DNA from: Nitrospirota bacterium
GTDB taxonomy: Bacteria; Nitrospirota; Nitrospiria; Nitrospirales; Nitrospiraceae
Reading direction: 5' to 3'
Assembly: GCA_039931295.1 (NCBI GenBank)
Contig: JBDTSF010000178.1
Span: 352-64,351, forward strand
Length of the DNA: 64,000 nt
Shown here in pieces: positions 1,867-19,727 of the stretch (the first letter of the stretch is position 1; the number at the start of each line of letters is the position of its first letter). The position numbers were made by a program, and so were the translations under genes. A model generated the notes under the pieces. The model did not search any database. It had not been told where the DNA came from and was given only the letters and a program-made list of their open reading frames with translations.

Positions 1867-1868
1867 CG

Positions 1869-3022: not shown

Positions 3023-3047
3023 CGAATCGCCTTTTTTTTAGTATCAT
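3019..3047 (+). promoter_or_regulatory. Candidate sigma-70 promoter of the Fe(3+) ABC operon
   Basis: TTGACG (3019-3024), 17-nt spacer, TATCAT (3042-3047). Overlaps the fur stop codon, 43 nt upstream of the 3090 ATG. Confidence 0.45.
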
Positions 3048-3073
3048 TTTGAGACAGCTTATCAATTTCAATT
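3043..3073. promoter_or_regulatory. Candidate operator (Fur-type) downstream of the -10
   Basis: ATCATTTTGAGACAGCTTATCAATTTCAATT shares TTGAGA and an 11/12-identical TCAATTTCA(A/T)TT block with the Fur-box region at 10007-10045. The reverse complement of 3051-3069 matches the 19-bp Fur consensus at 12/19. Confidence 0.35.
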
Positions 3074-3089
3074 CCATAAGGATTCCCCC

Positions 3090-4130: not shown

Positions 4131-4146
4131 CTCGAAGGGACCCGTC

Positions 4147-5730
4147 GTGAGCACGATTCGCCAGCAACTTGCTTCGCCTTTGCAACTCGTTGTCTTGGCG
4201 ACGGCGGGAATTATTCTGCTGCCGCTCGGCTATGTCACTGCGCAGGCCCTCTCGGCTGATCCGGCCGTTTGGAGCCGCTTGTGGGCAACGCGCATTCCCG
4301 AGCTCCTGTTCAACACCGTCTCGCTGGCCGGCAGCGTGTCGATCATCACGCTAATCCTGGGCGTCTCAACCGCCTGGTTGGTGACACGTGTGGACTTCCC
4401 CGGTCGCCGATTGTGGGAAGGCGCCCTGGTTCTTCCCTTGGCGATGCCGACCTATGTGCTGGCCTATGTGTACTCTTATCTCCTAGGATTCGGCGGCCCC
4501 GTTGAACATCTCTGGCAACTCGTGGCCGGGCCCCAAGCCAGAGTCTTTTCTCCCCATAGTTATTGGGGCGCAACACTGGTTATGGCATTGGACACCTTTC
4601 CCTTCGTTTACCTCCTCAGCCGGAGTGCGCTTCTCAGCATGAATGTGTCGTTTGAAGAAGTGGCGCGGACCAGCGGTGTCTCCCGTCTCTCGACCCTGTG
4701 GCGAGTGACGCTGCCGTTGATGCGCCCTTCGATTGCTGCGGGGATTGCGCTCGTTATTTTGTACGTCGTGTCGGACTTCGGCGCCGTGTCGTTACTCCGC
4801 TACCAAACGCTCACCTACGCCGTGTTCCAGCAGATGACGGGACGGTCCGACAATACGGCAGCGAGCATCTTAAGTCTGCTGTTGGTCGTACTCGCACTGA
4901 TATTCCTGATCACGGAACGATGGTTCCGACAACGAAGCCGGTTTTATCAGACCACCGGCCGCTACCGAGCTCCACAACGGCGCCGCTATGGCTGGCTCGG
5001 CTCCATGGCCGTTACCGGTTATCTCGGATTGATCGTCGGCGCAGCCTTTGCCCTTCCAACCTTGCTCTTAATTCAATGGAGCCTCTCACCTGAGGCGCAG
5101 GCGACGCTCGACAGCCGGTTCTTCGGGTTTGTCTGGAACAGCGGTATTTTGGCCGCCTGTGCCGCCACCGGTGGCGTATTGATCGGCTTGCCGATTGCCT
5201 ATCTCGCCAGCCGCCGCCCGACGCTATTGAACCTAGGCTGCCTGCAAGCCGCCTATGCCGGCTATGTGCTTCCAGGACCAGTGGCAGCATTAGCCGTCCT
5301 TGTTCTATTTACTAAGCTCGCCCCGGTGTTCTATGGCTCCGTGCTCATCCTCATCGTCGCCTATGTGATCCATTTTCTCCCGGCCGGGCTCCAGTCACTG
5401 GAACCGGCGCTCCAGCAGATGTCGCCGAATCTAGAGGAAGTCGCGCGCACGCTAGGCCTTGGAATGCGCAACACCTGGCGACGGGTCACACTGCCGCTTA
5501 TTCGGAATGGATTTGTCGTCGCCTGGGTTTTGATGTTTTTACAGACAATGAAGGAGTTACCTGCCACGCTCTTGTTGCGGCCAGTGGGGTTCGACACCCT
5601 GGCCATTCGCGTCTGGATGGAAGCGAGCGAGGAATATTATCAACTGGCCGCTCCCTCCGCGCTCCTCATTGTCTTGTTGAGTCTCCCGGTACTGGCTTTG
5701 TTGGTCTCAAAAGATTGGCGCGCGGCGTAG
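4147..5730 (+). CDS. Fe(3+) ABC transporter permease (fused double permease, FbpB/AfuB-type)
   Basis: 527 aa, GTG start, two tandem ABC membrane-domain halves (about 12 TM segments). Located between the SBP and ATPase genes. Confidence 0.85.
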   Translation: MSTIRQQLASPLQLVVLATAGIILLPLGYVTAQALSADPAVWSRLWATRIPELLFNTVSLAGSVSIITLILGVSTAWLVTRVDFPGRRLWEGALVLPLAMPTYVLAYVYSYLLGFGGPVEHLWQLVAGPQARVFSPHSYWGATLVMALDTFPFVYLLSRSALLSMNVSFEEVARTSGVSRLSTLWRVTLPLMRPSIAAGIALVILYVVSDFGAVSLLRYQTLTYAVFQQMTGRSDNTAASILSLLLVVLALIFLITERWFRQRSRFYQTTGRYRAPQRRRYGWLGSMAVTGYLGLIVGAAFALPTLLLIQWSLSPEAQATLDSRFFGFVWNSGILAACAATGGVLIGLPIAYLASRRPTLLNLGCLQAAYAGYVLPGPVAALAVLVLFTKLAPVFYGSVLILIVAYVIHFLPAGLQSLEPALQQMSPNLEEVARTLGLGMRNTWRRVTLPLIRNGFVVAWVLMFLQTMKELPATLLLRPVGFDTLAIRVWMEASEEYYQLAAPSALLIVLLSLPVLALLVSKDWRAA

Positions 5731-5900
5731 CAGGATGCTGAAAAAGTCCACCAGCTTCGTTCTCGCATCGTCCAGATCCTCAACGTACCCCATACGAGGA
5801 ATAAGCTGTCTTGGCAGATCGGGGAGGGTGGGTGGAAACTATCACGCCTCGGGTCTTCACTCGCTGCGGCCTTGCTGGACGAACTTTTTGAGCATCCTGC
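5730..5900 (+). repeat. Intergenic imperfect-palindrome repeat, copy B (long form, 171 bp)
   Basis: GCAGGATGCTGAAAAAGTCCACCAGC...GGACGAACTTTTTGAGCATCCTGC. The first G is the last base of the permease TAG stop. Lies inside the ABC operon, 21 nt before the ATPase start. Confidence 0.9.
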
Positions 5901-5921
5901 AAGAGGAAGGATCGTGATGCT

Positions 5922-7046
5922 GTGACCTCAGACCACTCCACCGCACCCCGCCCTTCTGGTGAAAGCACATTCCAGGGCAATCTGTTTACGCCGGCCTCGT
6001 CGGTCTTGGAATTGCGTCATGTCTCTTGCGCCTACGAAACCGGGCGCCCTGCGGTCCTGGAAATTTCCTTCGCAGCTAGAGAAGGGGAAATTCTTTGCCT
6101 GCTGGGTCCTTCGGGGTGCGGGAAGACGACCATTTTGCGGGCGATCGCAGGATTTGAACCGGTTCGTTCCGGCCAACTGTTCTTATCCGGGCAACTCGTC
6201 TCGTCACCGGACGTCATGATCCCGACGGAGAGCCGGCACGTCGGAATGGTCTTTCAAGAATACGCGCTGTTTCCCCACCTACGCGTCCAAGACAACATCG
6301 CCTTCGGGCTCCATCATCTTGCCCGGAGCGAACGCGCACCGCGAGTCCAGGAGATGTTACGCCTCACAGGGCTGGAGGGATTCGAACGACGATATCCTCA
6401 CGAATTATCGGGCGGCCAGCAACAGCGGGTCGCACTGGCTCGCGCCCTCGTCCAGAATCCCGTCGTCTTGCTGCTCGATGAGCCATTCAGTAATTTGGAC
6501 CCAGACATGGCCGGGCGCATGCGCCAAGAATTGCACGATCTCTTACGACGGACAAAGACAACCACTGTGCTCGTCACACACGATCATGACGAAGCGTTTG
6601 CCATGGCCGATCGAATCGCTGTACTCAACCAGGGCCGCTTGGAACAACTCGATACGCCGGAAATGATGTACCACATGCCGGCCACACCCTTCGTCGCCGA
6701 TTTCGTCGGTCAAGCAGACTTCATCCCTGGAACTGTCTCCCACGGCCTGGTCCAGACCGAACTAGGAGAGTTTCCCGATACCATCGAATGCGCGGATGGC
6801 ACCAATGTGGTCGTTATGATTCGGCCCGACGATATCCATCTTATCCCCACGAAGGGCGCGCGCGCGCGCGTCCTCTCCCGCCAATTTCATGGATCAGAAA
6901 ATCTGTATACGGTCAGCCTCCCCTCAGGTCAAATCGTTCATAGTAGCCAAGGTTCCACGAGCGTCTATCAGGCAGGCACGGCAGTAGAACTTCGTGTCCT
7001 GGCGACCCATACTGTGCTCTTTCGTCAAGAGAAGCCCACTGGATAG
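5922..7046 (+). CDS. Fe(3+) ABC transporter ATP-binding protein (FbpC/AfuC-type)
   Basis: Walker A GPSGCGKTT, signature LSGGQQQRVALARAL, Walker B LLLDEPFSNLD, and a C-terminal TOBE-like domain. GTG start preceded by GAGGAAGGA. Confidence 0.9.
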   Translation: MTSDHSTAPRPSGESTFQGNLFTPASSVLELRHVSCAYETGRPAVLEISFAAREGEILCLLGPSGCGKTTILRAIAGFEPVRSGQLFLSGQLVSSPDVMIPTESRHVGMVFQEYALFPHLRVQDNIAFGLHHLARSERAPRVQEMLRLTGLEGFERRYPHELSGGQQQRVALARALVQNPVVLLLDEPFSNLDPDMAGRMRQELHDLLRRTKTTTVLVTHDHDEAFAMADRIAVLNQGRLEQLDTPEMMYHMPATPFVADFVGQADFIPGTVSHGLVQTELGEFPDTIECADGTNVVVMIRPDDIHLIPTKGARARVLSRQFHGSENLYTVSLPSGQIVHSSQGSTSVYQAGTAVELRVLATHTVLFRQEKPTG

Positions 7047-7145
7047 GCATACGAGTCAATCCGACAGATCACACGAAAACATTGACAGGCTTTTTCGCGA
7101 TCTGGCATTGATAGAGATTCACGGCGGTTCCTGACCTGCCGGTTT

Positions 7146-7607
7146 ATGAATAATGAAGGAACGAAGGCCTTGTCTATGAATGGGTTACAAAACCTTGTCG
7201 ATTATGGAGTCATTGGGCTCCTATTAGCGCTCAGTGTCTGGACGGTGGCCATCGCGGTGGAACGGTGGATCTTTTACCGTCGTGTCGATCTTACACAATA
7301 CCCTAACAGCCTGGGGTTGGAGATGGCGCTGACCAAACACCTGGTCATTATCGGCACAGTCGCCGCAAACGCTCCGTATATTGGCCTGCTAGGCACTGTG
7401 CTTGGGATCATGCTCACATTCCATACGATGGGGACCTCCGGGACCATGGCGGTCAATGCCATCATGATTGGGCTCAGCCTTGCGCTCAAGGCCACGGCGG
7501 TCGGACTACTGGTCGCGATTCCCTGCGTCGTCATGAACAACGTACTCCGACGGAAAGTAGCCGAGCTCCTTGCCCGACATAAGGAACAACATGCAACGGG
7601 ACATTGA
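7146..7607 (+). CDS. exbB: MotA/TolQ/ExbB family proton-channel protein
   Basis: 153 aa, three TM helices, ...GLLGTVLGIM... motif. Followed by exbD and tonB. Confidence 0.75.
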   Translation: MNNEGTKALSMNGLQNLVDYGVIGLLLALSVWTVAIAVERWIFYRRVDLTQYPNSLGLEMALTKHLVIIGTVAANAPYIGLLGTVLGIMLTFHTMGTSGTMAVNAIMIGLSLALKATAVGLLVAIPCVVMNNVLRRKVAELLARHKEQHATGH

Positions 7608-7965
7608 TCAAATCAACGTCATTCCCCTTGTGGACGTCATGCTGGTTCTCTTGGTCATCGTACTGACCACAGCCACTTTTATCAGCAGCGGGCAGATTCC
7701 GGTCAATTTGGCAAAAGCAAAGGAGGTCGGCGATCGCAAAGAGGCTCCCATCGTCATCACCCTCACGGCCGACGGCGCGCTCTTTCTCAACGACCGGGCC
7801 GTCCCTGAAGGAGGGCTTCAGGGTGCGCTGACTGCGGAGCCTCGGGAATCGTCGGTCGTCGTACGGGCAGATAAAGTTACGTTACTTGAACGATTCGTGT
7901 CCGTGGTCGATGAGGTGCGAGGGTTAGGATTTCAACAGGTCAGCCTGGAGGTCATCCGACTGTGA
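7591..7965 (+). CDS. exbD: ExbD/TolR biopolymer transport protein
   Basis: INVIPLVDVMLVLLVIVL TM anchor typical of ExbD. ATG at 7591 is preceded by AAGGAA; the ORF track starts at TTG 7570. Confidence 0.75.
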   Translation: MQRDIDQINVIPLVDVMLVLLVIVLTTATFISSGQIPVNLAKAKEVGDRKEAPIVITLTADGALFLNDRAVPEGGLQGALTAEPRESSVVVRADKVTLLERFVSVVDEVRGLGFQQVSLEVIRL

Positions 7966-8843
7966 TCGCTGAGGCGCCATTTCGCTCCGGAGGTCACAAG
8001 CAATCCCATGTCCAAGGGTGGTTGATCTCCGTCCTCTTCCACGGAACCGTGGCTCTCATAGCGATCCTCCTTATTAAGCACGTTCAACTCGTGCCGCAGG
8101 AAGACGCGTTCAAGTGGAACGTGGCCATAGTGTCGCCGGCTCAACCTGTTCAACCAGCCACATCATCCTCAGCCCAGGCTCCTGCCAGATCAGCTCCATC
8201 GACGACATCGACCTCCCCTCCCCCCCTGCGGCGGGGTACGCCGACACAAACGCTTACGCAACAGGCGGTCCTGTCCCCACCACAACCCTCAACTCCCTCA
8301 CGATCAGCGGCTCACACCGTGCAACCAGCCGAACCGATCAGACATGAGGTCATTGCACCCATCGCCATTGAAACTTCGCCCGCTCCAAAAACAGACGACT
8401 CATCAACAGCCGTCTCCGCCTCTACTGATGCCGTGACAGGACCATCAAGCGCGCAATCCACAGCCGTCGAACAGACTCCACAATCTGAACACACTTCAGC
8501 GCAAACCCAGATGGCAGCCATTTCTCCGGTACCATCCGTCGTACCGGCTAAGCGTGACTACAGCTGGCTCTCTGAAGCGATTTTACGTCGTATGGAAGAA
8601 TTGAAACGCTATCCCGCCTCGGCTCGAGTCGATCGAGCTGAAGGGAAAGTCGTGGTCAAAGCTGTGATCGACGAGGACGGGAGCATCAGTGAAGTTGGCG
8701 TCTTTCTGAGTTCGGGGCACATCGCGCTCGACGAAGCCGCGGTTGAAACCATGCGGCAAGCCGCCCCATTCCATTTGCCGCATCCATTGGGACAGCCGCG
8801 CATGACGATCAAGATTCCCATGAACTATCGATTGGACCGATAA
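7962..8843 (+). CDS. tonB: TonB family energy transducer
   Basis: N-terminal TM anchor, a roughly 170-aa Ser/Thr/Pro/Ala-rich linker and a C-terminal TonB_C-like fold (YPASARVDRAEGKVVVKAVIDEDG...). 4-nt overlap with exbD. Confidence 0.75.
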   Translation: MIAEAPFRSGGHKQSHVQGWLISVLFHGTVALIAILLIKHVQLVPQEDAFKWNVAIVSPAQPVQPATSSSAQAPARSAPSTTSTSPPPLRRGTPTQTLTQQAVLSPPQPSTPSRSAAHTVQPAEPIRHEVIAPIAIETSPAPKTDDSSTAVSASTDAVTGPSSAQSTAVEQTPQSEHTSAQTQMAAISPVPSVVPAKRDYSWLSEAILRRMEELKRYPASARVDRAEGKVVVKAVIDEDGSISEVGVFLSSGHIALDEAAVETMRQAAPFHLPHPLGQPRMTIKIPMNYRLDR

Positions 8844-8852
8844 CCCTCTGCT

Positions 8853-9911
8853 TCACGGTTTACGGATCCGACCCCGTAACCCTGATGACACATGGACCGA
8901 ACCTTCATGATCGACAATAATGGCCTCCACCTCTGGTAACACTTCGACAAGCTGCATGCCCAATTCAGCCCCCATGACAAAAATTCCTGTGTCCAACCCG
9001 TCCGCCCAGATGCCTTCGCGGGCAATTACCGTGACACTCTGGCAACCGCGCGCGGGTTGGAGCGTGCGCGGATTGAGAATATGGTGATACCGAACACCCT
9101 CACGCTCGAAAAATCGTTCGTAGTCGCCGGCCGTTGAGATTGCCTCATCTTCCAAGTCGATGAAGGCAAGCACCTCTTCCTTTTTGCGTGGATGTAGGAT
9201 ACCGACGGGAAACTTCCCCCCCCCGGGCAACCGTCCGAATGTTCGAATATCCCCTGAGAGGGCTACGATCCCTGCCAACGCTCCGGCTTTCTTCATCACC
9301 GCCACTGCTTGATCCGCCGCATATCCTTTGCCGATCCCACCCACATCAATCCGCATCCCAGCTTTCTCAAGAAAAATCGTCTGCGTCTGTGCGTCAACAT
9401 GAACCGCGTGTAAATCCACCATGTGGCGGATCGCGTCCAGCTCAGATCCTGTCGGTACTCGTCGGCCTTCAATCACATTCCAGGCATCCACCGCCGGGCC
9501 AATGGCGATATTGAATCCGCCATCCGTCAACTCTGCAACTTGGATCGCACCCTGGACAACCGTCATCGTGTCATGACTTACCGGAACCGGCATCACACCC
9601 GCCAAGGCATTCACGCGAGACAATTCACTCGTCGGAATCCAGGTACTCAGAAGTTCTTCGAGGCGATGGATCTCGGCGAACCCGGCAGTCGCCGCAGCTT
9701 GTGCGTCGGATTCATTCCGAGCCACGGCTGTAATCTTGACCAGCGTACCCATCTGCATTTGAGCTCTGGTAACAACGGTTGGTTTCTTGCCAGAGAATAC
9801 CCCTGCACACCCGCCGAAGGCGGCACACAGCAATATGAGAAGGGCTGTCTGGATACGAAGCGAGTGATCGAACAGATTGGAATACATGCGCTCCTTTATC
9901 ATGCCTTGCAC
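8853..9911 (-). CDS. apbE: FAD:protein FMN transferase (ApbE family), lipoprotein
   Basis: 352 aa, lipobox LLCAAFGGC, GGIGKGYAADQA motif and overall ApbE pattern. Confidence 0.85.
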   Translation of the reverse strand: MQGMIKERMYSNLFDHSLRIQTALLILLCAAFGGCAGVFSGKKPTVVTRAQMQMGTLVKITAVARNESDAQAAATAGFAEIHRLEELLSTWIPTSELSRVNALAGVMPVPVSHDTMTVVQGAIQVAELTDGGFNIAIGPAVDAWNVIEGRRVPTGSELDAIRHMVDLHAVHVDAQTQTIFLEKAGMRIDVGGIGKGYAADQAVAVMKKAGALAGIVALSGDIRTFGRLPGGGKFPVGILHPRKKEEVLAFIDLEDEAISTAGDYERFFEREGVRYHHILNPRTLQPARGCQSVTVIAREGIWADGLDTGIFVMGAELGMQLVEVLPEVEAIIVDHEGSVHVSSGLRGRIRKP

Positions 9912-9991
9912 AATCGAGGGATCGGATTATAGGACAAGACTGGACTTAATACACTCCGTACTCGGACCATTGACACACAACATGATGGACC

Positions 9992-10021
9992 TTGACTTTC
10001 GAGCGCTGATTGAGATATTAA
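9992..10021 (+). promoter_or_regulatory. Candidate sigma-70 promoter of the Zn-ribbon ORF / porin-like OMP unit
   Basis: TTGACT (9992-9997), 18-nt spacer, TATTAA (10016-10021). The -10 is embedded in the Fur box. Confidence 0.45.
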
Positions 10022-10032
10022 TAATCGTTCTC
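10014..10032. promoter_or_regulatory. Fur box
   Basis: GATATTAATAATCGTTCTC matches the 19-bp consensus GATAATGATAATCATTATC at 15/19 (counted by hand). Lies within the inverted repeat ATTGAGA-N13-TCTCAAT and in the divergent apbE / porin intergenic region. Confidence 0.55.
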
Positions 10033-10062
10033 AATTTCATTTGAGCGGAAAAATCTATCGCT

Positions 10063-10242
10063 ATGGTCAGTACCACTTCCCCGAGTCATCACTCTGCTGA
10101 GTGCGATGAAACCCGCTGCGAATGCGGTCAACTGATCGCCAAGGTGCGCGGACAAGGGATAGAGCTCAAGTGTAAGCGCTGCAAACGCATCATCGTAATC
10201 CCCTTTTCTTCCATCAAAGGGTGGAGTGCGGTTACATCATGA
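10063..10242 (+). CDS. Small Zn-ribbon protein, Mu Com-like (59 aa; below the ORF-track cutoff)
   Basis: MVSTTSPSHHSAECDETRCECGQLIAKVRGQGIELKCKRCKRIIVIPFSSIKGWSAVTS. RC.C..L.AK...G.IE.KC.RCK resembles the Com zinc-finger family. Starts 31 nt after the Fur box. Confidence 0.4.
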   Translation: MVSTTSPSHHSAECDETRCECGQLIAKVRGQGIELKCKRCKRIIVIPFSSIKGWSAVTS

Positions 10243-10375
10243 TCACCCTATCGCCGAAAGGAGCTATCACCCCAACATACCGATGCGTAACCAACCGTTG
10301 CCGATTTAAAGAAGACCAGAGACCCGCGAGTCCCGAGTCAGACCTCAACCATCTCACTCACCGTGGAGGATACCG

Positions 10376-11851
10376 ATGAAGATCCGGTCAATCCTCGGGG
10401 CTCTCTTGATTACAGCTTTACCATTTACATCGGTGTGGGCTGAAAACATGACCCCGGAGGACATTCAAAAGTTAGTGGATGAAGCCGTCACTAAGCGGTT
10501 ACAGGAACATGAGCGGCGCGAGGGCGCTATGGAACGACGGGAAGGCGTGGTCGCCCCACAGAGCGAACCCGGTATCGGCCCCCTGCATGATGTTGGAAAA
10601 GAGCGACGAACCGAAAGTCAGCCTGCGTTGTCGTTCGGTTCATCTGGTTCAGGCCGACTCGTGTATGCCAAACCGTTCGTATCCTCACCAAAAGCCATCG
10701 TCGGTGGCTATGCTGACATTCAATACCGTGCGCATCGAAACGGGGTGTTAGAAGGTTATGGCAACGGAGTGACGAATGGCTTTGATCAGCAACGATTCGT
10801 ACCCTTCATTTATGCAGACATTACTGAGCATGTGAAGTTTGCCTCTGAGCTTGAAATTGAGCACGGGATTAGAGGAGCCGGAGAAAACGAAATCAGCTTG
10901 GAATTTGCTCATATCGACTATCTCGTGAACGAACCTGTCAACATCCGAGCAGGCATTCTGCTCATCCCCATCGGCAAATTCAATTTACTGCATGACTCGC
11001 CGTTGAATGACTTGACCGATCGTCCACTTGTCAGCCAGTTCGTGATTCCATCAACCATGTCCGAGACGGGCGCAGGCTTCTATGGCACCTTTTACCCTGG
11101 ACGAACCAGTAAGCTCGACTATGAACTCTACGTGACGACTGGCCCTTGCGGGAATGAGCCTGACGGCGCCCCGCGCATCAATGAGGAAACCGGCACAAAA
11201 AACTCCCGCCAACGGAAATGTGCCGACTCCGCTGACGGATTGGACATCAACAGCGGCAAAGCCGTCTCCGGTCGTATCGCCTTTAGCCCGATGCTCGGTG
11301 TGGAGATCGCCGGATCGAGCTATTACGGCAATCAATCTCCTTCCAGCTACAACCCCCTGAGTATCACAGCAATTGACTGGACGCTCCAAAAGGGGCCGTT
11401 TGAGATCATTGGCGAAGCGGCATGGGCCTATTCGCGGGGAAACTCCCGCGCAATTCCTGGCAGTTCCTTCGGCCCTGCTCCGGGCACTCTTCTGACTGGG
11501 ATCAATACATTTAATCCCCTGGCAGCTCCTCCACAAAGGATGCAGGGATTTTATCTCCAGGGTAACTACCACTTCATGCCGGCGTTCCTGACAAAGCTTT
11601 CGCCGAAACGGTTTGGGGAAGGCTCCACCTTTACTGCTGTGATTCGTTACGACCTGGTGAACTTGAACCGAGACAACCGGGGCGAGAACCAAGGCGAACT
11701 GGAGCAGATTTCCTTTGGCCTAAACTACCGTCCGGTGGAAGACGCTGTCTTCAAAATCAGCTATCAATACTTGCCAAAATCGTTTAATCCGAACTCCGGG
11801 CAACGAATTCATGATGGGGCGCTAGTGATCTCAGCGGCAACGTATTTCTAG
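10376..11851 (+). CDS. Exported outer-membrane beta-barrel (porin-like) protein
   Basis: 491 aa, signal peptide ...FTSVWA|EN, charged coiled-coil-like N-terminus, alternating beta-strand pattern and a C-terminal ...AATYF aromatic terminus. GGAGG before the ATG. Confidence 0.6.
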   Translation: MKIRSILGALLITALPFTSVWAENMTPEDIQKLVDEAVTKRLQEHERREGAMERREGVVAPQSEPGIGPLHDVGKERRTESQPALSFGSSGSGRLVYAKPFVSSPKAIVGGYADIQYRAHRNGVLEGYGNGVTNGFDQQRFVPFIYADITEHVKFASELEIEHGIRGAGENEISLEFAHIDYLVNEPVNIRAGILLIPIGKFNLLHDSPLNDLTDRPLVSQFVIPSTMSETGAGFYGTFYPGRTSKLDYELYVTTGPCGNEPDGAPRINEETGTKNSRQRKCADSADGLDINSGKAVSGRIAFSPMLGVEIAGSSYYGNQSPSSYNPLSITAIDWTLQKGPFEIIGEAAWAYSRGNSRAIPGSSFGPAPGTLLTGINTFNPLAAPPQRMQGFYLQGNYHFMPAFLTKLSPKRFGEGSTFTAVIRYDLVNLNRDNRGENQGELEQISFGLNYRPVEDAVFKISYQYLPKSFNPNSGQRIHDGALVISAATYF

Positions 11852-11859
11852 GTCGAATA

Positions 11860-11895
11860 CAGACGAGCCCTCCCTCTGAAGGGAGGGCTCGTCTG
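11860..11895 (+). terminator. Terminator-like hairpin after the OMP gene
   Basis: CAGACGAGCCCTCCC-TCTGAA-GGGAGGGCTCGTCTG, a 15-bp perfect stem 9 nt after the stop. No clear T-tract. Confidence 0.45.
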
Positions 11896-11920
11896 TGAGC
11901 AAGAAAGAGCAGTGTGCATA

Positions 11921-12385
11921 ATGCCTACACCCAGAATAGCTTTAGTAGTCCTCGCGCTCCTCTCTGTCGGGTGCGCCGCCCTAAGCGGGAGTCGTGAGCA
12001 ATATTTTGTGTGCTCCTATGACAGCGTCTGGGACGCAGCACTTGAGACCATGAAAGGACAATCCGTCTCAACCTATGACAAAGAGAAGGGAACGATCGAG
12101 ACAAACTGGCAGGATGTGCCACCAACCTCAGATCGATCCTTCGGTATCTTTGGACGGGAAGGCTTTGGCAACAACGAACGCGCACGAATCACGCTGTCCG
12201 TCAAACAAATGAATGACGTCGCCTCTGTGAGCGTATTAGAAACTAGGCAGCGATGGCATTCCCGCGGAGGAGTCACTCAGCAAGCCCTTAAATGGTGGGC
12301 GATAGAACCATCGGAAGAGGTGATGAATGGCGTCGTCGATCGGCTCAACGCCAAGCTGAAAGTAAAAGGGTGTGTTCCCGCATGA
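11921..12385 (+). CDS. Hypothetical lipoprotein
   Basis: Signal peptide with lipobox LLSVGC. The stop overlaps the next start (ATGA). No family recognised. Confidence 0.6.
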   Translation: MPTPRIALVVLALLSVGCAALSGSREQYFVCSYDSVWDAALETMKGQSVSTYDKEKGTIETNWQDVPPTSDRSFGIFGREGFGNNERARITLSVKQMNDVASVSVLETRQRWHSRGGVTQQALKWWAIEPSEEVMNGVVDRLNAKLKVKGCVPA

Positions 12386-13059
12386 TATTTCAATTGTTCG
12401 TTCTCGCACTCGTGCTCTCCTTCGTCATGTCCCCAGCCATGGTCTGGGCAGAACGAGTCTGGGACAATGACCTCAAGCGCTATCTGACCGAGCAAGAAAT
12501 GTCCATGGCCGAAGTCTTCCTCACCGAGGAAGACGCAATCAAGCTGATGTTCCCCAAATCCGAGCACATCAAAAAAGATCTTCTCCGTGTTCCCGCGGAT
12601 AGGAAGCTAGTGATTGAAGAACGCATCGGCTGGAAATTTCCCGAAGATTCCTTTGAGGTCTACATCGGCGAAACCGGGGTGCAGGTCGATGGCTATGCCC
12701 TTGTGCAAAATACCATCGGCAAACACAAGCCGATGACCTATATGGTTGGAGTCGACGCACAGGGTCGTGTCTCGAACGTAGAACTGCTCGTGTTTCGTGA
12801 AGCGCGCGGCAGCGAGGTACGTACCAAACGATTCAACGTGCAATATGAAGGCAAGACGGCGTCCGATCCTGTCCGCATCAACAAAGACATCATCAATATT
12901 AGCGGCGCGACCATGTCGGTTCGCTCTATGAGCGCCGGCATCAAACGCGTGCTCGTCTTGGTCGATGAATTCTATTTAAAACCGGCAGGGCGCGGCAGCG
13001 ATACGGTGGCCGCAAAGAAATCTGAGCAGGGAATCTTCGGCTCCATCTTCGGAAACTAA
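12382..13059 (+). CDS. Exported FMN-binding domain protein (NqrC/RnfG-type FMN_bind) with flavinylation motif
   Basis: Start at MIFQLFVLALVLSFVMSPAMVWA (signal peptide; ATGA overlap with the previous gene). DIINISGATMSVRS matches the ApbE target motif [S/T]GA[T/S]. Confidence 0.75.
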   Translation: MIFQLFVLALVLSFVMSPAMVWAERVWDNDLKRYLTEQEMSMAEVFLTEEDAIKLMFPKSEHIKKDLLRVPADRKLVIEERIGWKFPEDSFEVYIGETGVQVDGYALVQNTIGKHKPMTYMVGVDAQGRVSNVELLVFREARGSEVRTKRFNVQYEGKTASDPVRINKDIINISGATMSVRSMSAGIKRVLVLVDEFYLKPAGRGSDTVAAKKSEQGIFGSIFGN

Positions 13060-13083
13060 CAGGGGTAGACAACATTCTCTCTC

Positions 13084-13602
13084 ATGCGAAACTTCAACAC
13101 TCGTTTCCGTCTCCGCGACTCCGACCGGCACATCCGTCTGGTCTACACCTTCTTTCTCCTCTTGATGCTGGCTGGTTTTACCTTTTCATTTTTCTGGGCC
13201 CACAGCATGACAGGGCTTTCGCCACAAGGAATCGCCAGTCACTACCGGGGGTCGGATGCCACCTTCGGCGAACCGATGTCGTTCAGGGAGCTGGCGGAAA
13301 TCACCCACTTTCACCTCTTCACGATGCCGGTCGTGTTCATGATCCTGGTGCATGTGCTCTATCTCACCAGCGTCGGCAACAAACTGAAAATCATCACGAC
13401 CTGGGTCTCGTTCGGTGGATTGATCTTGGACCTAGTCTCTCCCTGGCTCATCAGCTACGTCTCGCCCCTATTCGTCCTCACCATGTTGACGGGCGATACC
13501 CTTATGACGGTGGGATTTCTCATCATGATGGTGATTCCTCTCTACGAGATGTGGGTCTTGAACCAGCCACTGTTGGCTGGAAAACACGGAAAAGAAGAAT
13601 GA
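13084..13602 (+). CDS. Integral membrane protein (about 4 TM, conserved His residues), unknown family
   Basis: 172 aa. Hydrophobic segments include ITHFHLFTMPVVFMILVHVLYL. Directly follows the FMN-binding gene. Confidence 0.55.
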   Translation: MRNFNTRFRLRDSDRHIRLVYTFFLLLMLAGFTFSFFWAHSMTGLSPQGIASHYRGSDATFGEPMSFRELAEITHFHLFTMPVVFMILVHVLYLTSVGNKLKIITTWVSFGGLILDLVSPWLISYVSPLFVLTMLTGDTLMTVGFLIMMVIPLYEMWVLNQPLLAGKHGKEE

Positions 13603-13658
13603 TGACCTAAGGTAGCCTGATACTTGACATGGATGCGGCCAGAGGTTTTTTCACCCAG

Positions 13659-13700
13659 AGCCCAAGATCATACGCTGTGATCTTGGGCTTCTTATTTTTC
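13659..13700 (+). terminator. Rho-independent terminator
   Basis: AGCCCAAGATCA-TACGCTG-TGATCTTGGGCT followed by TCTTATTTTTC. Separates the membrane-protein gene from the HD-GYP gene. Confidence 0.65.
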
Positions 13701-13708
13701 TTGGAGAA

Positions 13709-14425
13709 ATGGCGATGGAACAGCGAATCTGTGAACACATCCATCCTAAGATTATCGCGATACAGGGAATGCTCCGAAAGATCGATTGTCTCCGGCTCCC
13801 TACTGAATCACGCCGCGACGTCGAAAGCATTCTTGTTCGCCAGGTCAGCAAGGAAATTGATCGGGCACTCCCCTGGCAGGCAGGTCACGGTCGCCGCACG
13901 GCTACGATCTCCTTGCTGATCGGGCAAGCAATCGGCCTAACGCCCAACGAGTTGCACGATCTGAAGCTCGCAGCCCTCCTCCACGATATCGGGCTCTTGA
14001 TGCTCCCTCGGGAGCTGACCATCGGAGCGAACCCGCTCGATCCAGAATCCTATGTCGCCGTGCAGAATCACCCTCGGCTTGGCGCCTTGCTGCTCGAACC
14101 GTTCTTCTTTCTCCGAGAGGCTTCCATCCTCGTGGCCCATCACCATGAGCGATGGGACGGATCGGGCTACCCATACGGTATCAGAGGACGATTCATCCCT
14201 ATTGGAGCCAGAGTCCTCTCGATCGCCGACGCCTTCGATGCCATCCGTATCCCCAACGTCCCGATCCGCGTTGCCAGAAACACCATCGCACTCAGAATTA
14301 TCCACGTGGCAGCCGGCACCCAATTTGACCCGGAGTTAGTCGACGTGTTGTGGCTACTCCAGGAATCTATTCCAAACTCAAATCTTGTCGAACCAGCGAT
14401 GAGCAACTGTTTCGACTCGTTATGA
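13709..14425 (+). CDS. HD-GYP domain protein (putative c-di-GMP phosphodiesterase)
   Basis: AALLHDIGLL (HD) and HHERWDGSGYPYG (GYP) motifs. No receiver domain. Confidence 0.8.
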   Translation: MAMEQRICEHIHPKIIAIQGMLRKIDCLRLPTESRRDVESILVRQVSKEIDRALPWQAGHGRRTATISLLIGQAIGLTPNELHDLKLAALLHDIGLLMLPRELTIGANPLDPESYVAVQNHPRLGALLLEPFFFLREASILVAHHHERWDGSGYPYGIRGRFIPIGARVLSIADAFDAIRIPNVPIRVARNTIALRIIHVAAGTQFDPELVDVLWLLQESIPNSNLVEPAMSNCFDSL

Positions 14426-16191
14426 AAATTATGGAGGTCCCCGTGTATTCTGTTGATCGCCTTTACCATGCATGGCTTCAAGTCGTTGGAGGGTCATCCT
14501 TGATCTTCTTCTCTCTTCTCCTTATCGGATGCAGCGGAGGCAGCAGCAGCCCTCCACCGGTCTCAGTCGCGATTGCAGGGACATCGGGAGCCGAAGCCTC
14601 GGTGGGAGAACGGCTGTTTGTCGAAACCCGTTTTGCCCAAGCCTTTAAGGTCTATCTGGATTCTGGGGGAAAGGTAAATGACGTTCTCACTGTCGGCGAT
14701 CCGGTCATGGATCTCTCTGAAACAACAAGGTCAGGAGTAGGTCTCCCTGGGCCCTTCGCAAGGCTTACAATGAATTGTCGAGCCTGCCACCTTGTCGATG
14801 AACATGTCGGTACGCCCGGGGGAGGGATGCGGACCTATGCGGACTTCGCCCTCCGAAGTCCGCTTCCTGACCGAGGCGACGGCAAGAGAACTGCCCCTCG
14901 AAACTCTCAGCCTCTGGTCAATGCATCGATTGATCGCCCGGGTGGTGCTTTATTCCACTTTGATGGCGAATTCTCAACGATGGAGGATCTCATCGTCGGG
15001 ACCTTCACCGGTCGGAATTTCGGCTGGTTGCCCGGGCAAAAGGCAGTAGCCATCCATCACATTGCACAAGTCATGCGTGAGGATGACGGCAGCGGGGTCA
15101 TTGCCCAACAATTCGACGGACTTCCCTATGCCGCTCTGTTCACCGGAGCCAACCCAAGCATTCCGGATGAACTTCGTCTGCCTCCGGAGTTTCGTGTGTT
15201 CATCGGATCAGCCAGTGACCAGGAAATCTTCGACGCGGTTGTGAAAGTGGTTGCAGCCTACGTCGTCGGATTGCGCTTCTCGCAAGCCGACGACGCCGGT
15301 AATCTTATTCGTTCACCGTTCGACGTGTTTTTAAGTCGCAACGGCCTCCCGCAAGAGCCGAACAGCGGCGAAACTCCCCTCGATTACAGCCGCCGCCTCC
15401 TGACACTCGTGAACGGACTAGCGAGTCCGCAGTTCGTGACGTCTGATCCACATCGAGGAGATGGCCTATTCCAATTCCACGCTCAGCCATTCCAGTTTGG
15501 AGCCCAAGAGTTGGAAGGTTTGAGAATTTTTCTCGCGGAGCCCTCGGCGACCCCACCCACCGGGCCGGAATTATCCACGGGCAAAATCGGCAATTGTCTC
15601 GCGTGCCACGCGGCTCCGAACTTTACGGATTTCAAGTTGCACAACACCGGCACAACGCAACGAGAGTACGACCGCATTCACGGTGTCAACTCATTCGCGG
15701 CTCTCACGATTCCAAGCCTTGCCGCTCGAAACGGAAATTACAATGGGTTCCTCCCCGCAACCGAGGTCCATCCCAACGCCTCGGAACGTTTCCGAGCCAT
15801 TCCTGTTCTCTCTGACCCTACCTTGACTGATCTCGGTGTGTGGAACGTCTTCGCCAACCCGGACATGCCGACCCCGCAAGAAAAGATTCGAACCATCTTG
15901 TGCGATGACCAAGTGCCCTGTCCCCATTCCGATGCGACGTTACTGGATCGATCCATCGCCAGATTCAAAACACCGGGCCTGCGCGACCTCAGTCATTCCG
16001 CTCCCTTTATGCACAACGGCCAATTTGCCACATTGAACGGCATCATCGATTTCTATATCGATGTCTCAGGTCAAGTCCGAGCAGGCAGGCTGCGCAATGG
16101 CGCCGTGCAACTTCAGGGGATCGCGCTCACCACCGGCGACATCGCATCGCTAGTCGCATTCCTTAAATCGCTGGATGAGGACTATCAATAG
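14422..16191 (+). CDS. Di-haem cytochrome c peroxidase/MauG-family lipoprotein (long form)
   Basis: Two CxxCH sites (NCRACH, NCLACH), lipobox LLLIGCSGG, and CCP-like C-terminal half (FKTPGLRDLSHSAPFMHNG). ATG 14422 overlaps the HD-GYP stop (ATGA); the ORF track starts at 14350. Confidence 0.75.
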   Translation: MKIMEVPVYSVDRLYHAWLQVVGGSSLIFFSLLLIGCSGGSSSPPPVSVAIAGTSGAEASVGERLFVETRFAQAFKVYLDSGGKVNDVLTVGDPVMDLSETTRSGVGLPGPFARLTMNCRACHLVDEHVGTPGGGMRTYADFALRSPLPDRGDGKRTAPRNSQPLVNASIDRPGGALFHFDGEFSTMEDLIVGTFTGRNFGWLPGQKAVAIHHIAQVMREDDGSGVIAQQFDGLPYAALFTGANPSIPDELRLPPEFRVFIGSASDQEIFDAVVKVVAAYVVGLRFSQADDAGNLIRSPFDVFLSRNGLPQEPNSGETPLDYSRRLLTLVNGLASPQFVTSDPHRGDGLFQFHAQPFQFGAQELEGLRIFLAEPSATPPTGPELSTGKIGNCLACHAAPNFTDFKLHNTGTTQREYDRIHGVNSFAALTIPSLAARNGNYNGFLPATEVHPNASERFRAIPVLSDPTLTDLGVWNVFANPDMPTPQEKIRTILCDDQVPCPHSDATLLDRSIARFKTPGLRDLSHSAPFMHNGQFATLNGIIDFYIDVSGQVRAGRLRNGAVQLQGIALTTGDIASLVAFLKSLDEDYQ

Positions 16192-16575
16192 GCATCATCA
16201 AGGCACAGAGAATCAATCTGCCTGTGCCCATCATACCGGCAACGGGGTGGGGGCTCTCCACTCCGAGGGCGGGGACCCGGTCTTCCTCACGAGGCCCCCG
16301 CCCCTCTTTCGGTTCGCGTATCGAGCAGGATAGGCGAAGCCAACGGACATCAGGTTCAGAGCCCATCGTTGTTCAGTGGCCATAGGGGAGATGATGGCAC
16401 GGAGAAGCATTCGCGGAAGTACAGGTCAAAAATCGGCTCGACGATCGATTGATTCAAAGGTACGGCGCTGACCAGAATCTAAGCCTCATAGGACAGTGAG
16501 CCTAGCCTGGAAAGGAGGAAATACCATGAGTTCCCATAGAAGCCTGCTCGCGGTGAAAGCCTGACGCGAGCGCCG

Positions 16576-17046
16576 TTACGCTTTGATCTGTTCTGCCAGA
16601 TAGTTCTCCAGCCCTACTTGCTTAATCGTTTCCAATTGCGTTTCAATCCAGTCGATATGTTGATCCACGTCTTTGGCCATATCCTCAAACATGTGCCGTG
16701 TGGTGAAGTCGGTTACCTTTGTGCAATGCACCACACCATCGTTTAACAAGCCGAGCATTTCTTGTTCAGCTTTTAGATCAAGCTTGAACTGTTCAGGAAC
16801 CGTTTCTCCGACCTGCACCATATTCATGCGTTGCAGATTCGGCACGCCGTCCAGATAGAGAATGTGGCCGATCAACTCGTCTGCATCCTTCATCTCATCG
16901 ACACTACGCTCCCGCACTTTATGATGGAGCCGCTCATAGCCCCAGTTCTCACACATCTTGGCATGGACAAAGTATTGATTGATGGCGGTGAGATCCGCTG
17001 TCAGGATCTTATTCAGGATGTTGATGACGCCCTCTTTAGCTTTCAT
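16576..17046 (-). CDS. bfr: Bacterioferritin
   Basis: 156 aa from MKAKEGVINILNKILTADLTAINQYF... The sequence aligns along its length with E. coli Bfr, including the haem-ligand Met in DEMKDAD. AAGGAGGG precedes the ATG at 17046; the ORF track extends to 17109. Confidence 0.9.
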   Translation of the reverse strand: MKAKEGVINILNKILTADLTAINQYFVHAKMCENWGYERLHHKVRERSVDEMKDADELIGHILYLDGVPNLQRMNMVQVGETVPEQFKLDLKAEQEMLGLLNDGVVHCTKVTDFTTRHMFEDMAKDVDQHIDWIETQLETIKQVGLENYLAEQIKA

Positions 17047-17273
17047 GGCGAGTCCCTCCTTATCAGAAGTGTTGGCAGCGACGGGGCGCTCAATGGCGCT
17101 CACTGACAACGAAAACCTATCAGCCGACAGGCATATTGTCGGCTCCCTGCCGGTGATCTGTCAACGTGTTTTTACGTAGATAATGAAAACAGTTCTCAGC
17201 TTCAGAGATTTGACTCGACCCCAATCACTTACAGGGATAGGAGTGGAACGTTCTGAGCGGATGGGAGCAGGAT

Positions 17274-19652
17274 TCAGCCGGCTTCGCGGTAACCACATTC
17301 TTCACTACGGCATTGGACGCTACGGCCAACTTGCTTGCTGACTTTCTCGATGAGAAACGGGGCGCTACAGGTCGGGCAGGCCTTGTTGATCGGACGGTCC
17401 CACATGGCATATTCACAGGCCGGATATTTGCTGCAGGCAAAAAATGCCCGCGCGCCCTTCTTGGTGCGCTTTTGAACAAGATCGCCACCGCAGCCTTGCT
17501 GTGGGCATTTCACACCCAGCGCAAGCGGCTTGGTCGTCTTACATTCCGGGTACGCAGAACAGGCAATGAACTTGCCAAATCGTCCGGTCTTCACCACCAT
17601 CGGACTGCTGCACTTCTCGCACTTCTCATCCGTCGTCAACTCAATCTTCGGGACTATTTTAATGGTGCCATCCTCAAGCTTCTCAAAATTCTGAGTATTC
17701 TTGCAGGGAGGCTTGTCCTTGTAGGCAGGGCAAGCGAGAAACTTTCCGTTCCGCCCCCATTTAACCTCCATCATCTTGCCGCACTTTTCACAGGGAAGAT
17801 CCGTCGGTGGCTCCACCGTATCCTTGGGGCCAGGAATGTTTTTGGCCTTCTCCAGATCCGTGATGAAGGTCCCGTAAAACTCCCGCACGGCCGTCACCCA
17901 CGGTTTATTGCCTTCTTCGACTGCGTCCAACTCCTCCTCCATGTGCGAGGTGAAATCGACATTGATCAGGTCCGGGAATCCTTTCATTAAAAAATCATTC
18001 ACAGTCTTCCCGGTTTCGGTGGGACCGAACCGCCCATCCGCCTTCTCGGCATATTTGCGATCCTGAATCGTCGAAATAATGCTCGCATAGGTGGATGGCC
18101 GACCGATGCCTTTTTCTTCCAACTCTTTGATCAGCAACGCTTCGTTATACCGGGGCGGCGGCTGGGTGAAATGTTGTTTCGAGAGTAAGCCCGGAACCGT
18201 CTGCCCCTCCAAAGACACAAGCTGTAACTTCTCTCCCTCGTTGAGCAGCGGCAACTGACGCTCCGCCTCCTCCTCAACCTCCTGCTCGCCTTTCTGCTTC
18301 TGCGCAAGCAACTCCTTATCGACTCCCTCCATATAGACGATCGTATGGCCGGGAAACTTCACGACGGTGCCGGTCGAGCGGAAGAGAAACTTCTCCTTCG
18401 TTTTGACGGGGCTCGAATCTACGCGAGTCACGTCGAAGATCGCAGGGACCATCTGTGAGGCAACAAATCGATTCCAGATCAACTGGTACAGCCGATAGAT
18501 ATCCGGCTCTAGGTACTGCTTGATCGATTCCGGGTCACGGGACGCCGACGTGGGGCGAATGGCTTCGTGTGCCTCTTGTGCCGCTTTCTGCGTTTTATAC
18601 AAGTTCGGCGTGGCGGGCAGATACTCGGCCCCGAACCGCTCCTGGATCACCTGACGCGCTTCGTTCATCGCCTCGGTCGAGATACGCGGAGAGTCGGTTC
18701 TCATGTAGGTGATGAGACCGGTCTGGCCTTCCGCCCCGATTTCGATGCCTTCATAGAGCTTCTGCGCCAACGTCATCGTTTTCTTCGACGAGAAATGCAG
18801 CTTACGCGCCGCTTCCTGTTGGAGCCGGCTGGTGATGAAGGGTGCGACGGGATTCCGTTTCTTTTCTTTTCGCTCAATCGAATCGACGACGAACTCTTTC
18901 CCTTGGATGGCATCGACGACGCGCTGCGCATCGGTCGCGGTCTCTATCGATACATCCTGTCCATTGATCTTCTGCAGCTTGGCTTCGAACGACGGAGGGT
19001 TGATCCCGGACAACAGCACAGCAATCGACCAGTACTCTTCCGCCCGAAACGCTTCTCGTTCCTGTTCCCGTTCGCAAATCAATCGCATCGCCACGGACTG
19101 AACCCGACCCATGCTGAGTCCGCGCCGTACCTTGGTCCAGAGTAATTGGCTGCCTTGATAACCGACAATCCGATCCAGCACCCGGCGGGCCTGCTGCGCG
19201 TTCACCAGTTTCATATCGACCTGCCCGGGTGACTGCAGTGCGCGCTTAATGGCCGATTCCGTGATTTCATTAAACAGAACCCGGAACACCTTGCCCTCTG
19301 GTTGATCCTTCGATTTCGACTTGGATTTGGACTTCGATTTTGTTTTTGGCTTCTCGATCAATTCCTGTTCGAGATGCCAGGCGATGGCTTCGCCTTCTCG
19401 ATCGGGGTCCGACGCAAGATACACCCTGTCGGCCTCTTCCGCCTTTTTTTTAATATCCGCCAAGACCTTCGATTTCCCCTTGATCGTCACATACTGGGGC
19501 TCGAAATCGTGTTCCAGGTCCACCCCAAGCTTGCTGGTGGGAAGATCCTTAATATGTCCGACCGAGGCCATGACGGTATACCCACGCCCCAGATACTTAC
19601 TGATGGTGCGTGCTTTCGTCGGGGACTCGACAATGATGAGTGACTTGGCCAT
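17274..19652 (-). CDS. topA: DNA topoisomerase I
   Basis: 792 aa with a Toprim N-terminus (LIIVESPTKA), TYMRTDS active-site region and four C-terminal Cys4 zinc ribbons. Confidence 0.95.
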   Translation of the reverse strand: MAKSLIIVESPTKARTISKYLGRGYTVMASVGHIKDLPTSKLGVDLEHDFEPQYVTIKGKSKVLADIKKKAEEADRVYLASDPDREGEAIAWHLEQELIEKPKTKSKSKSKSKSKDQPEGKVFRVLFNEITESAIKRALQSPGQVDMKLVNAQQARRVLDRIVGYQGSQLLWTKVRRGLSMGRVQSVAMRLICEREQEREAFRAEEYWSIAVLLSGINPPSFEAKLQKINGQDVSIETATDAQRVVDAIQGKEFVVDSIERKEKKRNPVAPFITSRLQQEAARKLHFSSKKTMTLAQKLYEGIEIGAEGQTGLITYMRTDSPRISTEAMNEARQVIQERFGAEYLPATPNLYKTQKAAQEAHEAIRPTSASRDPESIKQYLEPDIYRLYQLIWNRFVASQMVPAIFDVTRVDSSPVKTKEKFLFRSTGTVVKFPGHTIVYMEGVDKELLAQKQKGEQEVEEEAERQLPLLNEGEKLQLVSLEGQTVPGLLSKQHFTQPPPRYNEALLIKELEEKGIGRPSTYASIISTIQDRKYAEKADGRFGPTETGKTVNDFLMKGFPDLINVDFTSHMEEELDAVEEGNKPWVTAVREFYGTFITDLEKAKNIPGPKDTVEPPTDLPCEKCGKMMEVKWGRNGKFLACPAYKDKPPCKNTQNFEKLEDGTIKIVPKIELTTDEKCEKCSSPMVVKTGRFGKFIACSAYPECKTTKPLALGVKCPQQGCGGDLVQKRTKKGARAFFACSKYPACEYAMWDRPINKACPTCSAPFLIEKVSKQVGRSVQCRSEECGYREAG

Positions 19653-19727
19653 GAAGACTCCGATTCGCTACGAGGGTGTCCCTCTCATCCGTACCAAATA
19701 ATTCACATCCGTGCAACTGTTCGATAA

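Follow-up and report, generated by a model that had tools for sequence, protein, structure and literature searches.

Gene content and boundaries of the operon

The 64,000-nucleotide stretch analysed here (positions 352 to 64,351 of contig JBDTSF010000178.1, assembly GCA_039931295.1; hereafter the window) belongs to a Nitrospirota bacterium, and the named homologues of its genes are from Nitrospira. Close to iron-transport genes, it carries genes for an exported flavin mononucleotide (FMN)-binding protein, a candidate flavin transferase ApbE, a small membrane protein and a porin-like outer-membrane protein (OMP), which together are the subject of this work. The locus was mapped from a listing of open reading frames (ORFs) combined with Pfam and NCBIfam scans of the window. 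All genes named in an earlier interpretation of the locus, made from the DNA letters without database searches (the sequence-only reading), were found where it had placed them, and every one of its domain calls holds.

Five genes on the forward strand constitute the operon (10063-13602). The first encodes a 59-aa Cys-rich protein (10063-10242; CxC...CxxC) that is conserved in Nitrospirota relatives. It is followed by genes for the 491-aa porin-like OMP (10376-11851), a lipoprotein (11912-12385, with an alternative start at 11921; lipobox LSVGC), the exported FMN_bind protein (12382-13059) and a 172-aa protein with four transmembrane segments (13084-13602; the 4-TM protein). The ATGA overlap that had been proposed between the lipoprotein and FMN_bind genes is present at 12382-12385. 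Divergently from the operon, the reverse strand encodes a lipoprotein ApbE, or FAD:protein FMN transferase (8853-9911; lipobox AFGGC), with a strong match to PF02424 (E-value 1.7e-79).

A consensus scan located a sigma-70-like promoter on the forward strand upstream of the operon (9992-10019; TTGACT-16-GATATT), which agrees with 9 of 12 consensus positions and has a TG extension. Its -10 hexamer coincides with the first six bases of a Fur box, GATATTAATAATCGTTCTC (10014-10032, forward strand). This site, already noticed in the sequence-only reading, matches the E. coli consensus at 15 of 19 positions and is the best Fur-consensus match in the whole window, where 0.13 equally good sites are expected per shuffled window. 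On the opposite side, an intrinsic terminator with a 15-pair stem and a subsequent T-run (13658-13690, or 13658-13700 at its widest, forward strand) follows the 4-TM gene. With the promoter-like site and Fur box at its start and the terminator after the 4-TM gene, the transcription unit comprises the small ORF, OMP, lipoprotein, FMN_bind and 4-TM genes.

These boundaries were compared with sediment metatranscriptome contigs from related strains (at least 85% identity), whose depth reflects expression poorly and was used solely for boundaries and as evidence of transcription. Contig depth equals ~4 in the bin 9800-9936 vs ~286 in the bin 9937-10073, where the promoter sits, and drops to 0 in the bin beginning at 13636, matching the terminator. 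The contigs cover the small ORF and the FMN_bind and 4-TM genes, and bridge the junction between the latter two. The small ORF and the 133-nt spacer between it and position 10376 lie within a highly covered stretch. No RNA family was matched in an Rfam search of window positions 1-20000.

The Fur box is phylogenetically footprinted across the genus Nitrospira. Among 58 Nitrospira loci, 43 have exactly this 19-mer and 14 have it with one or two changes; its distance to the small ORF stays at ~49 bp despite intergenic lengths of 135-2356 bp. By comparison, the best Fur-box matches in shuffled Nitrospira intergenic regions carry 7-9 mismatches. Fur-like boxes behind a TTGACA hexamer also precede the homologous operons of L087, L088 and L085 (Dadabacteria). 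By the criterion of a conserved promoter site, the operon plausibly belongs to the Fur regulon as a predicted target, and the iron control proposed in the sequence-only reading is likewise judged plausible, given the genus-wide box, its counterparts in Dadabacteria and other relatives, and the iron genes that flank the module elsewhere. Weaker Fur-like sites in the window, with 5-6 mismatches, occur at 17179-17197 (5 mismatches, upstream of bacterioferritin), at 3051-3069, behind fur and ahead of the iron ABC (ATP-binding cassette) importer, and at 39371-39389.

The predicted flavoprotein, its putative membrane partner and the outer-membrane protein

The FMN_bind protein matches PF04205 (34.3 bits, cut-off 22; E-value 3.9e-8), and its N-terminal signal peptide, MIFQLFVLALVLSFVMSPAMVWA, can be read from the sequence. 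Within the motif NISGATMS, Thr177 aligns with the flavinylated Thr of the RnfG motifs ITGSTIT and ITGATIT, and the residues G175-A176-T177 are invariant in all 56 homologues compared. A profile of this subfamily has RnfG (9eri_G, 7.5e-11) as its nearest match in the PDB. Judged by domain, motif, export and the co-encoded ApbE, the protein is assigned to the RnfG/NqrC-type family of ApbE substrates, and it is predicted to carry covalent FMN on Thr177, with ApbE as the maturase. It shares with RnfG and NqrC the FMN_bind fold family, an extracytoplasmic location and ApbE-attached FMN on the Thr of (S/T)GAT, this last feature being a prediction for the protein described here. The module differs from Rnf and Na+-NQR in that its 172-aa four-helix partner is unrelated to RnfD/NqrB and RnfA/E, and in that an OMP is co-conserved with it. 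No RnfA-E or NqrA-F genes were found beside FMN_bind in the window or in the related loci examined, and a remnant of an Rnf or Nqr complex was rejected as an explanation, there being no other subunit genes near the module.

The 4-TM protein was assigned to the very recent family PF27139 (Aq_1264_TM) not by its own score but through precomputed matches on close homologues, which are 77-94% identical, and on the identical protein encoded on contigs L001 and L002. An exhaustive phmmer search extended this family to 523 clusters at 50% identity. The literature search, whose coverage was incomplete, returned no paper that mentions aq_1264. The sequence-only reading had called the protein His-rich, which is overstated for 7 His among 172 residues; its key feature is instead the conserved set H75, H77 and H90. 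In 61 diverse members G56, H75 and H77 are invariant, whereas H90 is retained in 44 (72%). Strong conservation extends to a YxG loop, E72 and P120-W121, and H90, K102 and a PLxEMW motif are conserved on the opposite face of the membrane. The N-terminus is positively charged, and both known fusions of the 4-TM protein to ApbE insert a fifth hydrophobic segment before the ApbE part. Because the charge distribution and this additional segment indicate an N-in/C-in arrangement, the ExxHFH motif is predicted to lie at the periplasmic end of TM2.

An AlphaFold2 model of the 4-TM protein consists of four long helices in a bundle, with a mean predicted local distance difference test (pLDDT) of 88.7 and a predicted TM-score (pTM) of 0.80. 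A Foldseek search of the PDB with this model gave no fold relative (best E-value 1.4, TM-score at most 0.46); MAPEG proteins and rhodopsins, which appeared at E-values of 1.4 or more within the same TM-score limit, were set aside as uninformative generic helix bundles. The sequence profile had no match in the PDB either. Scanned against Pfam at E-values up to 10, the protein matched none of PepSY_TM, MsrQ/FRD (PF01794) and DUF4405, and so it does not belong with the membrane cytochromes that are recognized by PF03929/PF16357, PF01794 or DUF4405 and by four conserved haem-binding His. The H77-x12-H90 spacing fits two trans-membrane stacked haems as in ferric-reductase-domain proteins, which serves here as a lead only. 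A canonical single-chain di-haem cytochrome with four His was rejected, as just two His are invariant across the family; with too few invariant His for a single-chain di-haem conduit, any haem would need a dimer.

The OMP is a putative barrel of the porin superfamily, judging from its sequence features. These comprise a signal peptide, an N-terminal helix (~30 residues) and ~17 strands, both predicted, and a C-terminal YF. The protein matches Porin_4 weakly and Porin_O_P (PF07396) marginally (16.8 bits vs a cut-off of 20.9); many homologues that are 82-90% identical carry a precomputed PF07396 match. Conserved features include an E-x-E-x-E strand (E158/E160/E162), a loop GRFNxxH(D/E)xP, D334 and the invariant arginines R140, R191, R216, R300 and R424. 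An AlphaFold2 model built with 121 close homologues (82-95% identical) reached a pLDDT of only 41, and searches of the PDB by single sequence and by profile gave no match. The OMP resembles OprO and OprP, the Porin_O_P proteins, in its weak sequence similarity, size range, predicted all-beta structure and C-terminal aromatic signal. It differs from them in its sub-threshold score, N-terminal helix, E-x-E-x-E strand, GRFNxxH(D/E) loop and a genomic context of iron rather than phosphate.

For the remaining two genes of the operon, homologues turned up in Nitrospira and its nearer relatives only. The lipoprotein, a probable accessory with weak similarity to DUF3576 and NlpB (BamC-like), has a detectable homologue in L088 and L089 and none in more distant loci. 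The Cys-rich protein is 52-98% identical across Nitrospira loci and 53-65% identical in L087-L089. It matches no Pfam family, but its sequence (…CECGQLIAKVRGQGIELKCKRCKRII…) resembles Com-type zinc ribbons. It could act as a small regulator of the operon.

Parts of the operon vary sharply between close relatives. In the closest genome, Nitrospira sp. RSF6 (L006), the DNA is 96% identical to the window up to position 10506 and 89% identical from 12458, and nothing can be aligned between these positions. The replaced cassette (10506-12458) has sharp edges and contains the OMP gene from about codon 44, the entire lipoprotein gene and the first ~25 codons of FMN_bind. Two types of OMP and lipoprotein exist in the genus, at 45-50%/40% vs 70-90% protein identity, while the flanking 4-TM protein remains 78-98% identical. 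This pattern suggests recombinational exchange or diversifying selection acting on what may be surface-exposed parts.

Co-conservation of the module and its genomic neighbours

When genome contigs were scanned, all of the best 80 loci came from Nitrospira, and the taxonomic breadth of the module was therefore taken from separate contig and metagenome scans. The metagenome scan, seeded with non-Nitrospira members, provided 80 loci that were annotated with hidden Markov models built in this analysis. Co-occurrence was counted in those 38 of the 80 loci whose sequence extends for 2.5 kb or more ahead of the 4-TM gene, with neighbours considered within 6 kb. The FMN_bind subfamily adjoins the 4-TM gene in all 38 of these diverse loci, an OMP homologue is found beside it in 29 and ApbE in 15 (39%). 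Eleven of the 80 loci have no partner gene, and all of these are cut off no more than 650 nt ahead of the 4-TM gene. At least 11 arrangements of the module genes were observed, always on a single strand, a hallmark of genes that work as one unit.

In Nitrospira the whole array is conserved and runs from the ABC importer through exbBD, tonB, ApbE, the small ORF, OMP, lipoprotein and FMN_bind to the 4-TM gene. Outside this genus, the OMP/FMN_bind/4-TM trio was found at 32-39% identity in a Dadabacteria metagenome-assembled genome, a Gemmatimonadetes-labelled TARA contig and others. The order OMP-FMN_bind-4TM occurs alone in L086 and divergently from feoAB in L090. ApbE is inserted before the 4-TM gene in the Dadabacterial L085 (OMP-FMN_bind-ApbE-4TM, with a Fur box and ferritin nearby) and in L091, where the module is embedded in the string dtxR-hemP-OMP-FMN_bind-ApbE-4TM-fur-FTR1. 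In L092, another OMP-like protein is encoded between the 4-TM and FMN_bind genes. The comparison points to a conserved core that consists of the OMP, the predicted flavinylated FMN_bind protein and the 4-TM protein, with ApbE as the maturase. The proposal of the sequence-only reading that these four genes act as one unit thus gains from their co-conservation in several phyla and from the existence of partner fusions.

Fusions to ApbE involve both partners. FMN_bind+ApbE fusion ORFs are present in 12 of the 80 metagenome loci (L100, L106, L113, L114, L117, L122, L125, L126, L135-L137 and L139); the fusion of a flavin transferase to its own substrate is unusual. The 4-TM+ApbE fusions were found in two cluster representatives, P0285 and P0382, and L084 has FMN_bind next to such a fusion. 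Among the ten longest 4-TM representatives scanned there was no fusion of the 4-TM protein with FMN_bind. This asymmetry would agree with a role of the 4-TM protein as a supply or assembly factor that provides FAD to periplasmic ApbE, with the electrons of FMN_bind coming from elsewhere, and the route by which FAD reaches periplasmic ApbE has been described as unresolved (PMC12052999). Nevertheless, we consider such a role unlikely: the 4-TM gene lies beside FMN_bind in 38 of 38 loci vs 15 of 38 for ApbE, a four-helix protein of 172 residues is small for a FAD transporter, and conserved patches are found on both of its membrane faces.

Genes for iron metabolism recur around the module. In the window, a fur gene (2588-3022, forward strand; Pfam FUR) precedes an FbpABC-type iron ABC importer on the same strand, which consists of a substrate-binding protein (3090-4130; SBP_bac_6/8/11), a permease (4147-5730; BPD_transp_1) and an ATPase (5922-7046; ABC_tran and TOBE_2); a bacterioferritin gene lies on the other side of the operon on the reverse strand (16576-17109; Ferritin domain, E-value 1.5e-33). 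An importer of the same type flanks the module in L087-L089, and ferritin genes flank it in L085 and L088. Among the 38 diverse loci, fur is adjacent in 10 and feoB in 5. About 60% of these loci have no iron gene within 6 kb, and FMN_bind modules are known to serve many redox systems (PMC8238504), so the substrate might instead be another metal, a quinone or other organic oxidant, or reactive oxygen, with the iron genes being neighbours by regulon or by chance. We give this explanation a slim chance, because Fur, DtxR, FeoAB, FTR1 and ferritin genes recur beside the module in unrelated lineages and Fur boxes are conserved upstream of it.

The genes exbB (7146-7607; PF01618, 6e-26; TIGR02805, 149 bits, above its cut-off), exbD (7570-7965; PF02472, 3.9e-22) and tonB (7962-8843; TonB_C, 4e-15) occupy the forward strand between the iron importer and ApbE. 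The sequence-only reading had included them in the unit and had highlighted the combination of TonB with no TonB-dependent receptor as its central puzzle. Its observation on the receptor was borne out in the window: the six scanned ORFs of 567-659 aa encode RNase E/G, a penicillin-binding protein, a LeuA-like protein, a thiamine pyrophosphate enzyme, a sigma-70 factor and a primase, and the sole larger ORF (17274-19652, reverse strand, 792 aa) was judged by its translation to be a topoisomerase, no domain scan having been made for it. As the large ORFs are housekeeping genes or this apparent topoisomerase, the window contains no TonB-dependent receptor. Nor does the OMP qualify as one, since it has 491 residues and matches neither the plug (PF07715) nor the receptor domain (PF00593) that define these 22-strand transporters; it also lacks a credible TonB box.

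Inclusion of ExbBD-TonB in the unit was not upheld. Within 6 kb, ExbB, ExbD and TonB are missing from all 38 diverse loci, these genes are not adjacent to the module in L088, and in L089 a separate TonB/ExbBD set accompanies a normal plug-and-barrel receptor. Both ExbBD-TonB and the FbpABC-type importer are genomic neighbours of the module, not components. It follows from the count of 0/38 that TonB without a receptor reflects the gene order of Nitrospira and not the system itself, which removes this question as a property of the module. The same evidence makes it highly improbable that the OMP works as an unconventional plug-less transporter gated by the adjacent ExbBD-TonB, although the position of these genes throughout Nitrospira, the missing receptor and a weak sub-threshold Plug match in one OMP homologue (E-value 0.004) would agree with such energised uptake.

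Predicted function and relation to known systems

Taken together, we slightly favour the interpretation that the module is a Fur-repressed, envelope-spanning, flavin-based system for reductive iron acquisition. Periplasmic iron reduction is proposed because five kinds of iron gene adjoin the module, Fur boxes are conserved, and there is a precedent for flavinylated proteins in iron assimilation (PMC8238504). Under iron starvation, Fur would leave the box over the -10 element and the operon would be transcribed. The porin-like OMP could then admit iron species, e.g. ferric chelates or hydrolysed Fe(III), to the periplasm. There, the exported FMN_bind protein, carrying FMN that ApbE, the lipoprotein encoded divergently, would have attached covalently to Thr177, would dock on the periplasmic face of the 4-TM protein that bears the invariant YxG loop, the ExxHxH motif and the PW patch. 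The 4-TM protein would pass electrons from the quinol pool, maybe through a His-ligated cofactor such as a haem b held by a homodimer, in which H77-x12-H90 would provide a haem-spanning spacing. Finally, the flavin would reduce or release Fe(III), and the iron would be delivered to a nearby importer, which may be of the FbpABC type, as here, or FeoAB or FTR1, as elsewhere. The FbpABC-type importer is the likely sink for mobilised iron in the window. The gene content, operon boundaries, co-conservation, partner fusions, invariant flavinylation site, conserved Fur box and iron-gene neighbourhoods behind this scheme are observed, and from them we infer in which direction and from which donor electrons would flow, which cofactor the 4-TM protein would use, what the OMP would admit, and the ferric-reductase activity.

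Several observations weigh against this interpretation. In Nitrospira, the neighbouring importer belongs to the Fe(3+) type and has no obvious need for reduction. The conserved charges of the OMP are both acidic and basic, and its fold model is poor (pLDDT 41). Only two His are invariant in the 4-TM family, H90 being missing from ~28% of diverse representatives, and since the 4-TM model has no structural relative, it offers no cofactor site that could be transferred from solved structures. Moreover, ApbE is adjacent in merely 39% of loci and iron genes in ~39%.

Fur-type regulation would also be expected if the flavoprotein and the 4-TM protein did not act on iron but replaced an iron-containing electron carrier, such as a cytochrome c or an Fe-S protein, in the way that flavodoxin substitutes for ferredoxin. 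A flavin would then stand in for haem or Fe-S, and the respiratory chain of Nitrospira is very iron-rich. Such an iron-sparing role appears unlikely to us, as the OMP is co-conserved in 29 of 38 loci, pointing to a substrate from outside, and as feoAB, FTR1 and iron ABC importers are tightly adjacent, pointing to iron transport.

A role in reductive iron acquisition has parallels among described systems. ApbE flavinylation was previously linked to iron assimilation, including Fur-regulated PepSY-like, MsrQ-like and P19 clusters (Méheust 2021, PMC8238504; Huang 2024, PMC11334425), and the haem-b membrane partners of flavinylated systems include FezC, for which haem sites formed by homodimerisation were proposed (PMC11334425). 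The PepSY-like/FoxB+DUF2271, MsrQ-like and DUF4405/FezC systems share with the module an ApbE, an extracytoplasmic flavoprotein, a small His-bearing membrane protein, Fur and iron-transporter neighbours. In contrast to those membrane cytochromes, the 4-TM protein has no match to PepSY_TM, MsrQ or DUF4405, no fold match to FoxB and just two invariant His; unlike in the DUF2271 systems, the flavin carrier is an FMN_bind protein, and the unit includes a porin-like OMP. The FpvGHJK, FoxB and FsrB systems are similar in the proposed periplasmic reductive release of iron and its hand-over to an importer such as FeoAB, but they come after TonB-dependent receptors, rely on haem or other cofactors, and have neither an ApbE-flavinylated protein nor a porin partner (PMC10760861).

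A looser resemblance exists to flavin-based extracellular electron transfer (EET). The Listeria EET locus encodes PplA, FmnB/ApbE, EetA/EetB, Ndh2 and DmkA; there, electrons from the quinone pool reach a flavinylated extracytoplasmic FMN_bind protein via small membrane proteins, and ferric iron is a substrate. The Listeria locus differs in belonging to a Gram-positive organism with no OMP and in including genes for a dedicated NADH dehydrogenase and for quinone synthesis, which the present locus lacks. No homology of EetA or EetB to the module proteins was detected. The module is predicted from its Fur box to be regulated by iron starvation and would therefore be assimilatory, unlike Listeria EET.

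The sequence-only reading regarded a periplasmic flavin-based iron pathway of this kind as not yet characterised. This was too broad for the link between flavinylation and iron, which has been published (PMC8238504, PMC11334425), and was correct in that the 4-TM family and the porin fall outside the described systems. In the supplement text of Méheust 2021 (PMC8238504) that was searched there is no entry for Nitrospira or Porin_O_P, and the literature search, within its incomplete coverage, found no publication on the module in Nitrospira. The membrane-partner family and the co-conserved porin are new here, while the general idea of flavin-dependent iron handling was already known. With them, the catalogue of ApbE-flavinylated extracytoplasmic systems gains a fourth kind of membrane partner and its first co-conserved porin, and the Aq_1264_TM family, which so far bears merely a locus-tag name, acquires a testable role.

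The nitrite-oxidising and comammox Nitrospira have very iron-rich respiratory enzymes. To our knowledge, their iron acquisition is poorly understood, and a module with a Fur box beside an iron importer is a concrete candidate for it. On a wider scale, we put forward more tentatively, and with the balance leaning somewhat against it, that the OMP, FMN_bind and Aq_1264_TM proteins may represent an undescribed trans-envelope pathway of reductive iron uptake that is independent of siderophores and TonB. Aq_1264_TM would here form a new class of quinol:flavoprotein oxidoreductases, possibly a homodimeric haem-b protein (H77-x12-H90), and the pathway would operate in Nitrospirota, Dadabacteria, Gemmatimonadota-like and other lineages, helping to explain how nitrifiers are supplied with iron.

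Other genes recur near the module. Proteins of 203-305 aa that have no Pfam match are encoded beside ApbE or the 4-TM gene in L088 (6125-6736, reverse strand), L089 (5467-6090, reverse strand) and L090 (10567-11484), and may be further accessory components. In the window, the 7146-16191 interval of the sequence-only reading also includes two genes that were omitted from its list of otherwise correctly named genes, both located at 13709-16191 on the forward strand. They encode an HD_5 protein (13709-14425; HD-GYP-like) and a 589-aa di-haem lipoprotein (14422-16191; two CxxCH motifs, weak CCP_MauG) and overlap by 4 nt (14422-14425). Both were rejected as operon members because the strong terminator at 13658-13690 intervenes, and they were not found beside the module outside Nitrospira. 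Within the genus, this pair follows the operon terminator in most loci.

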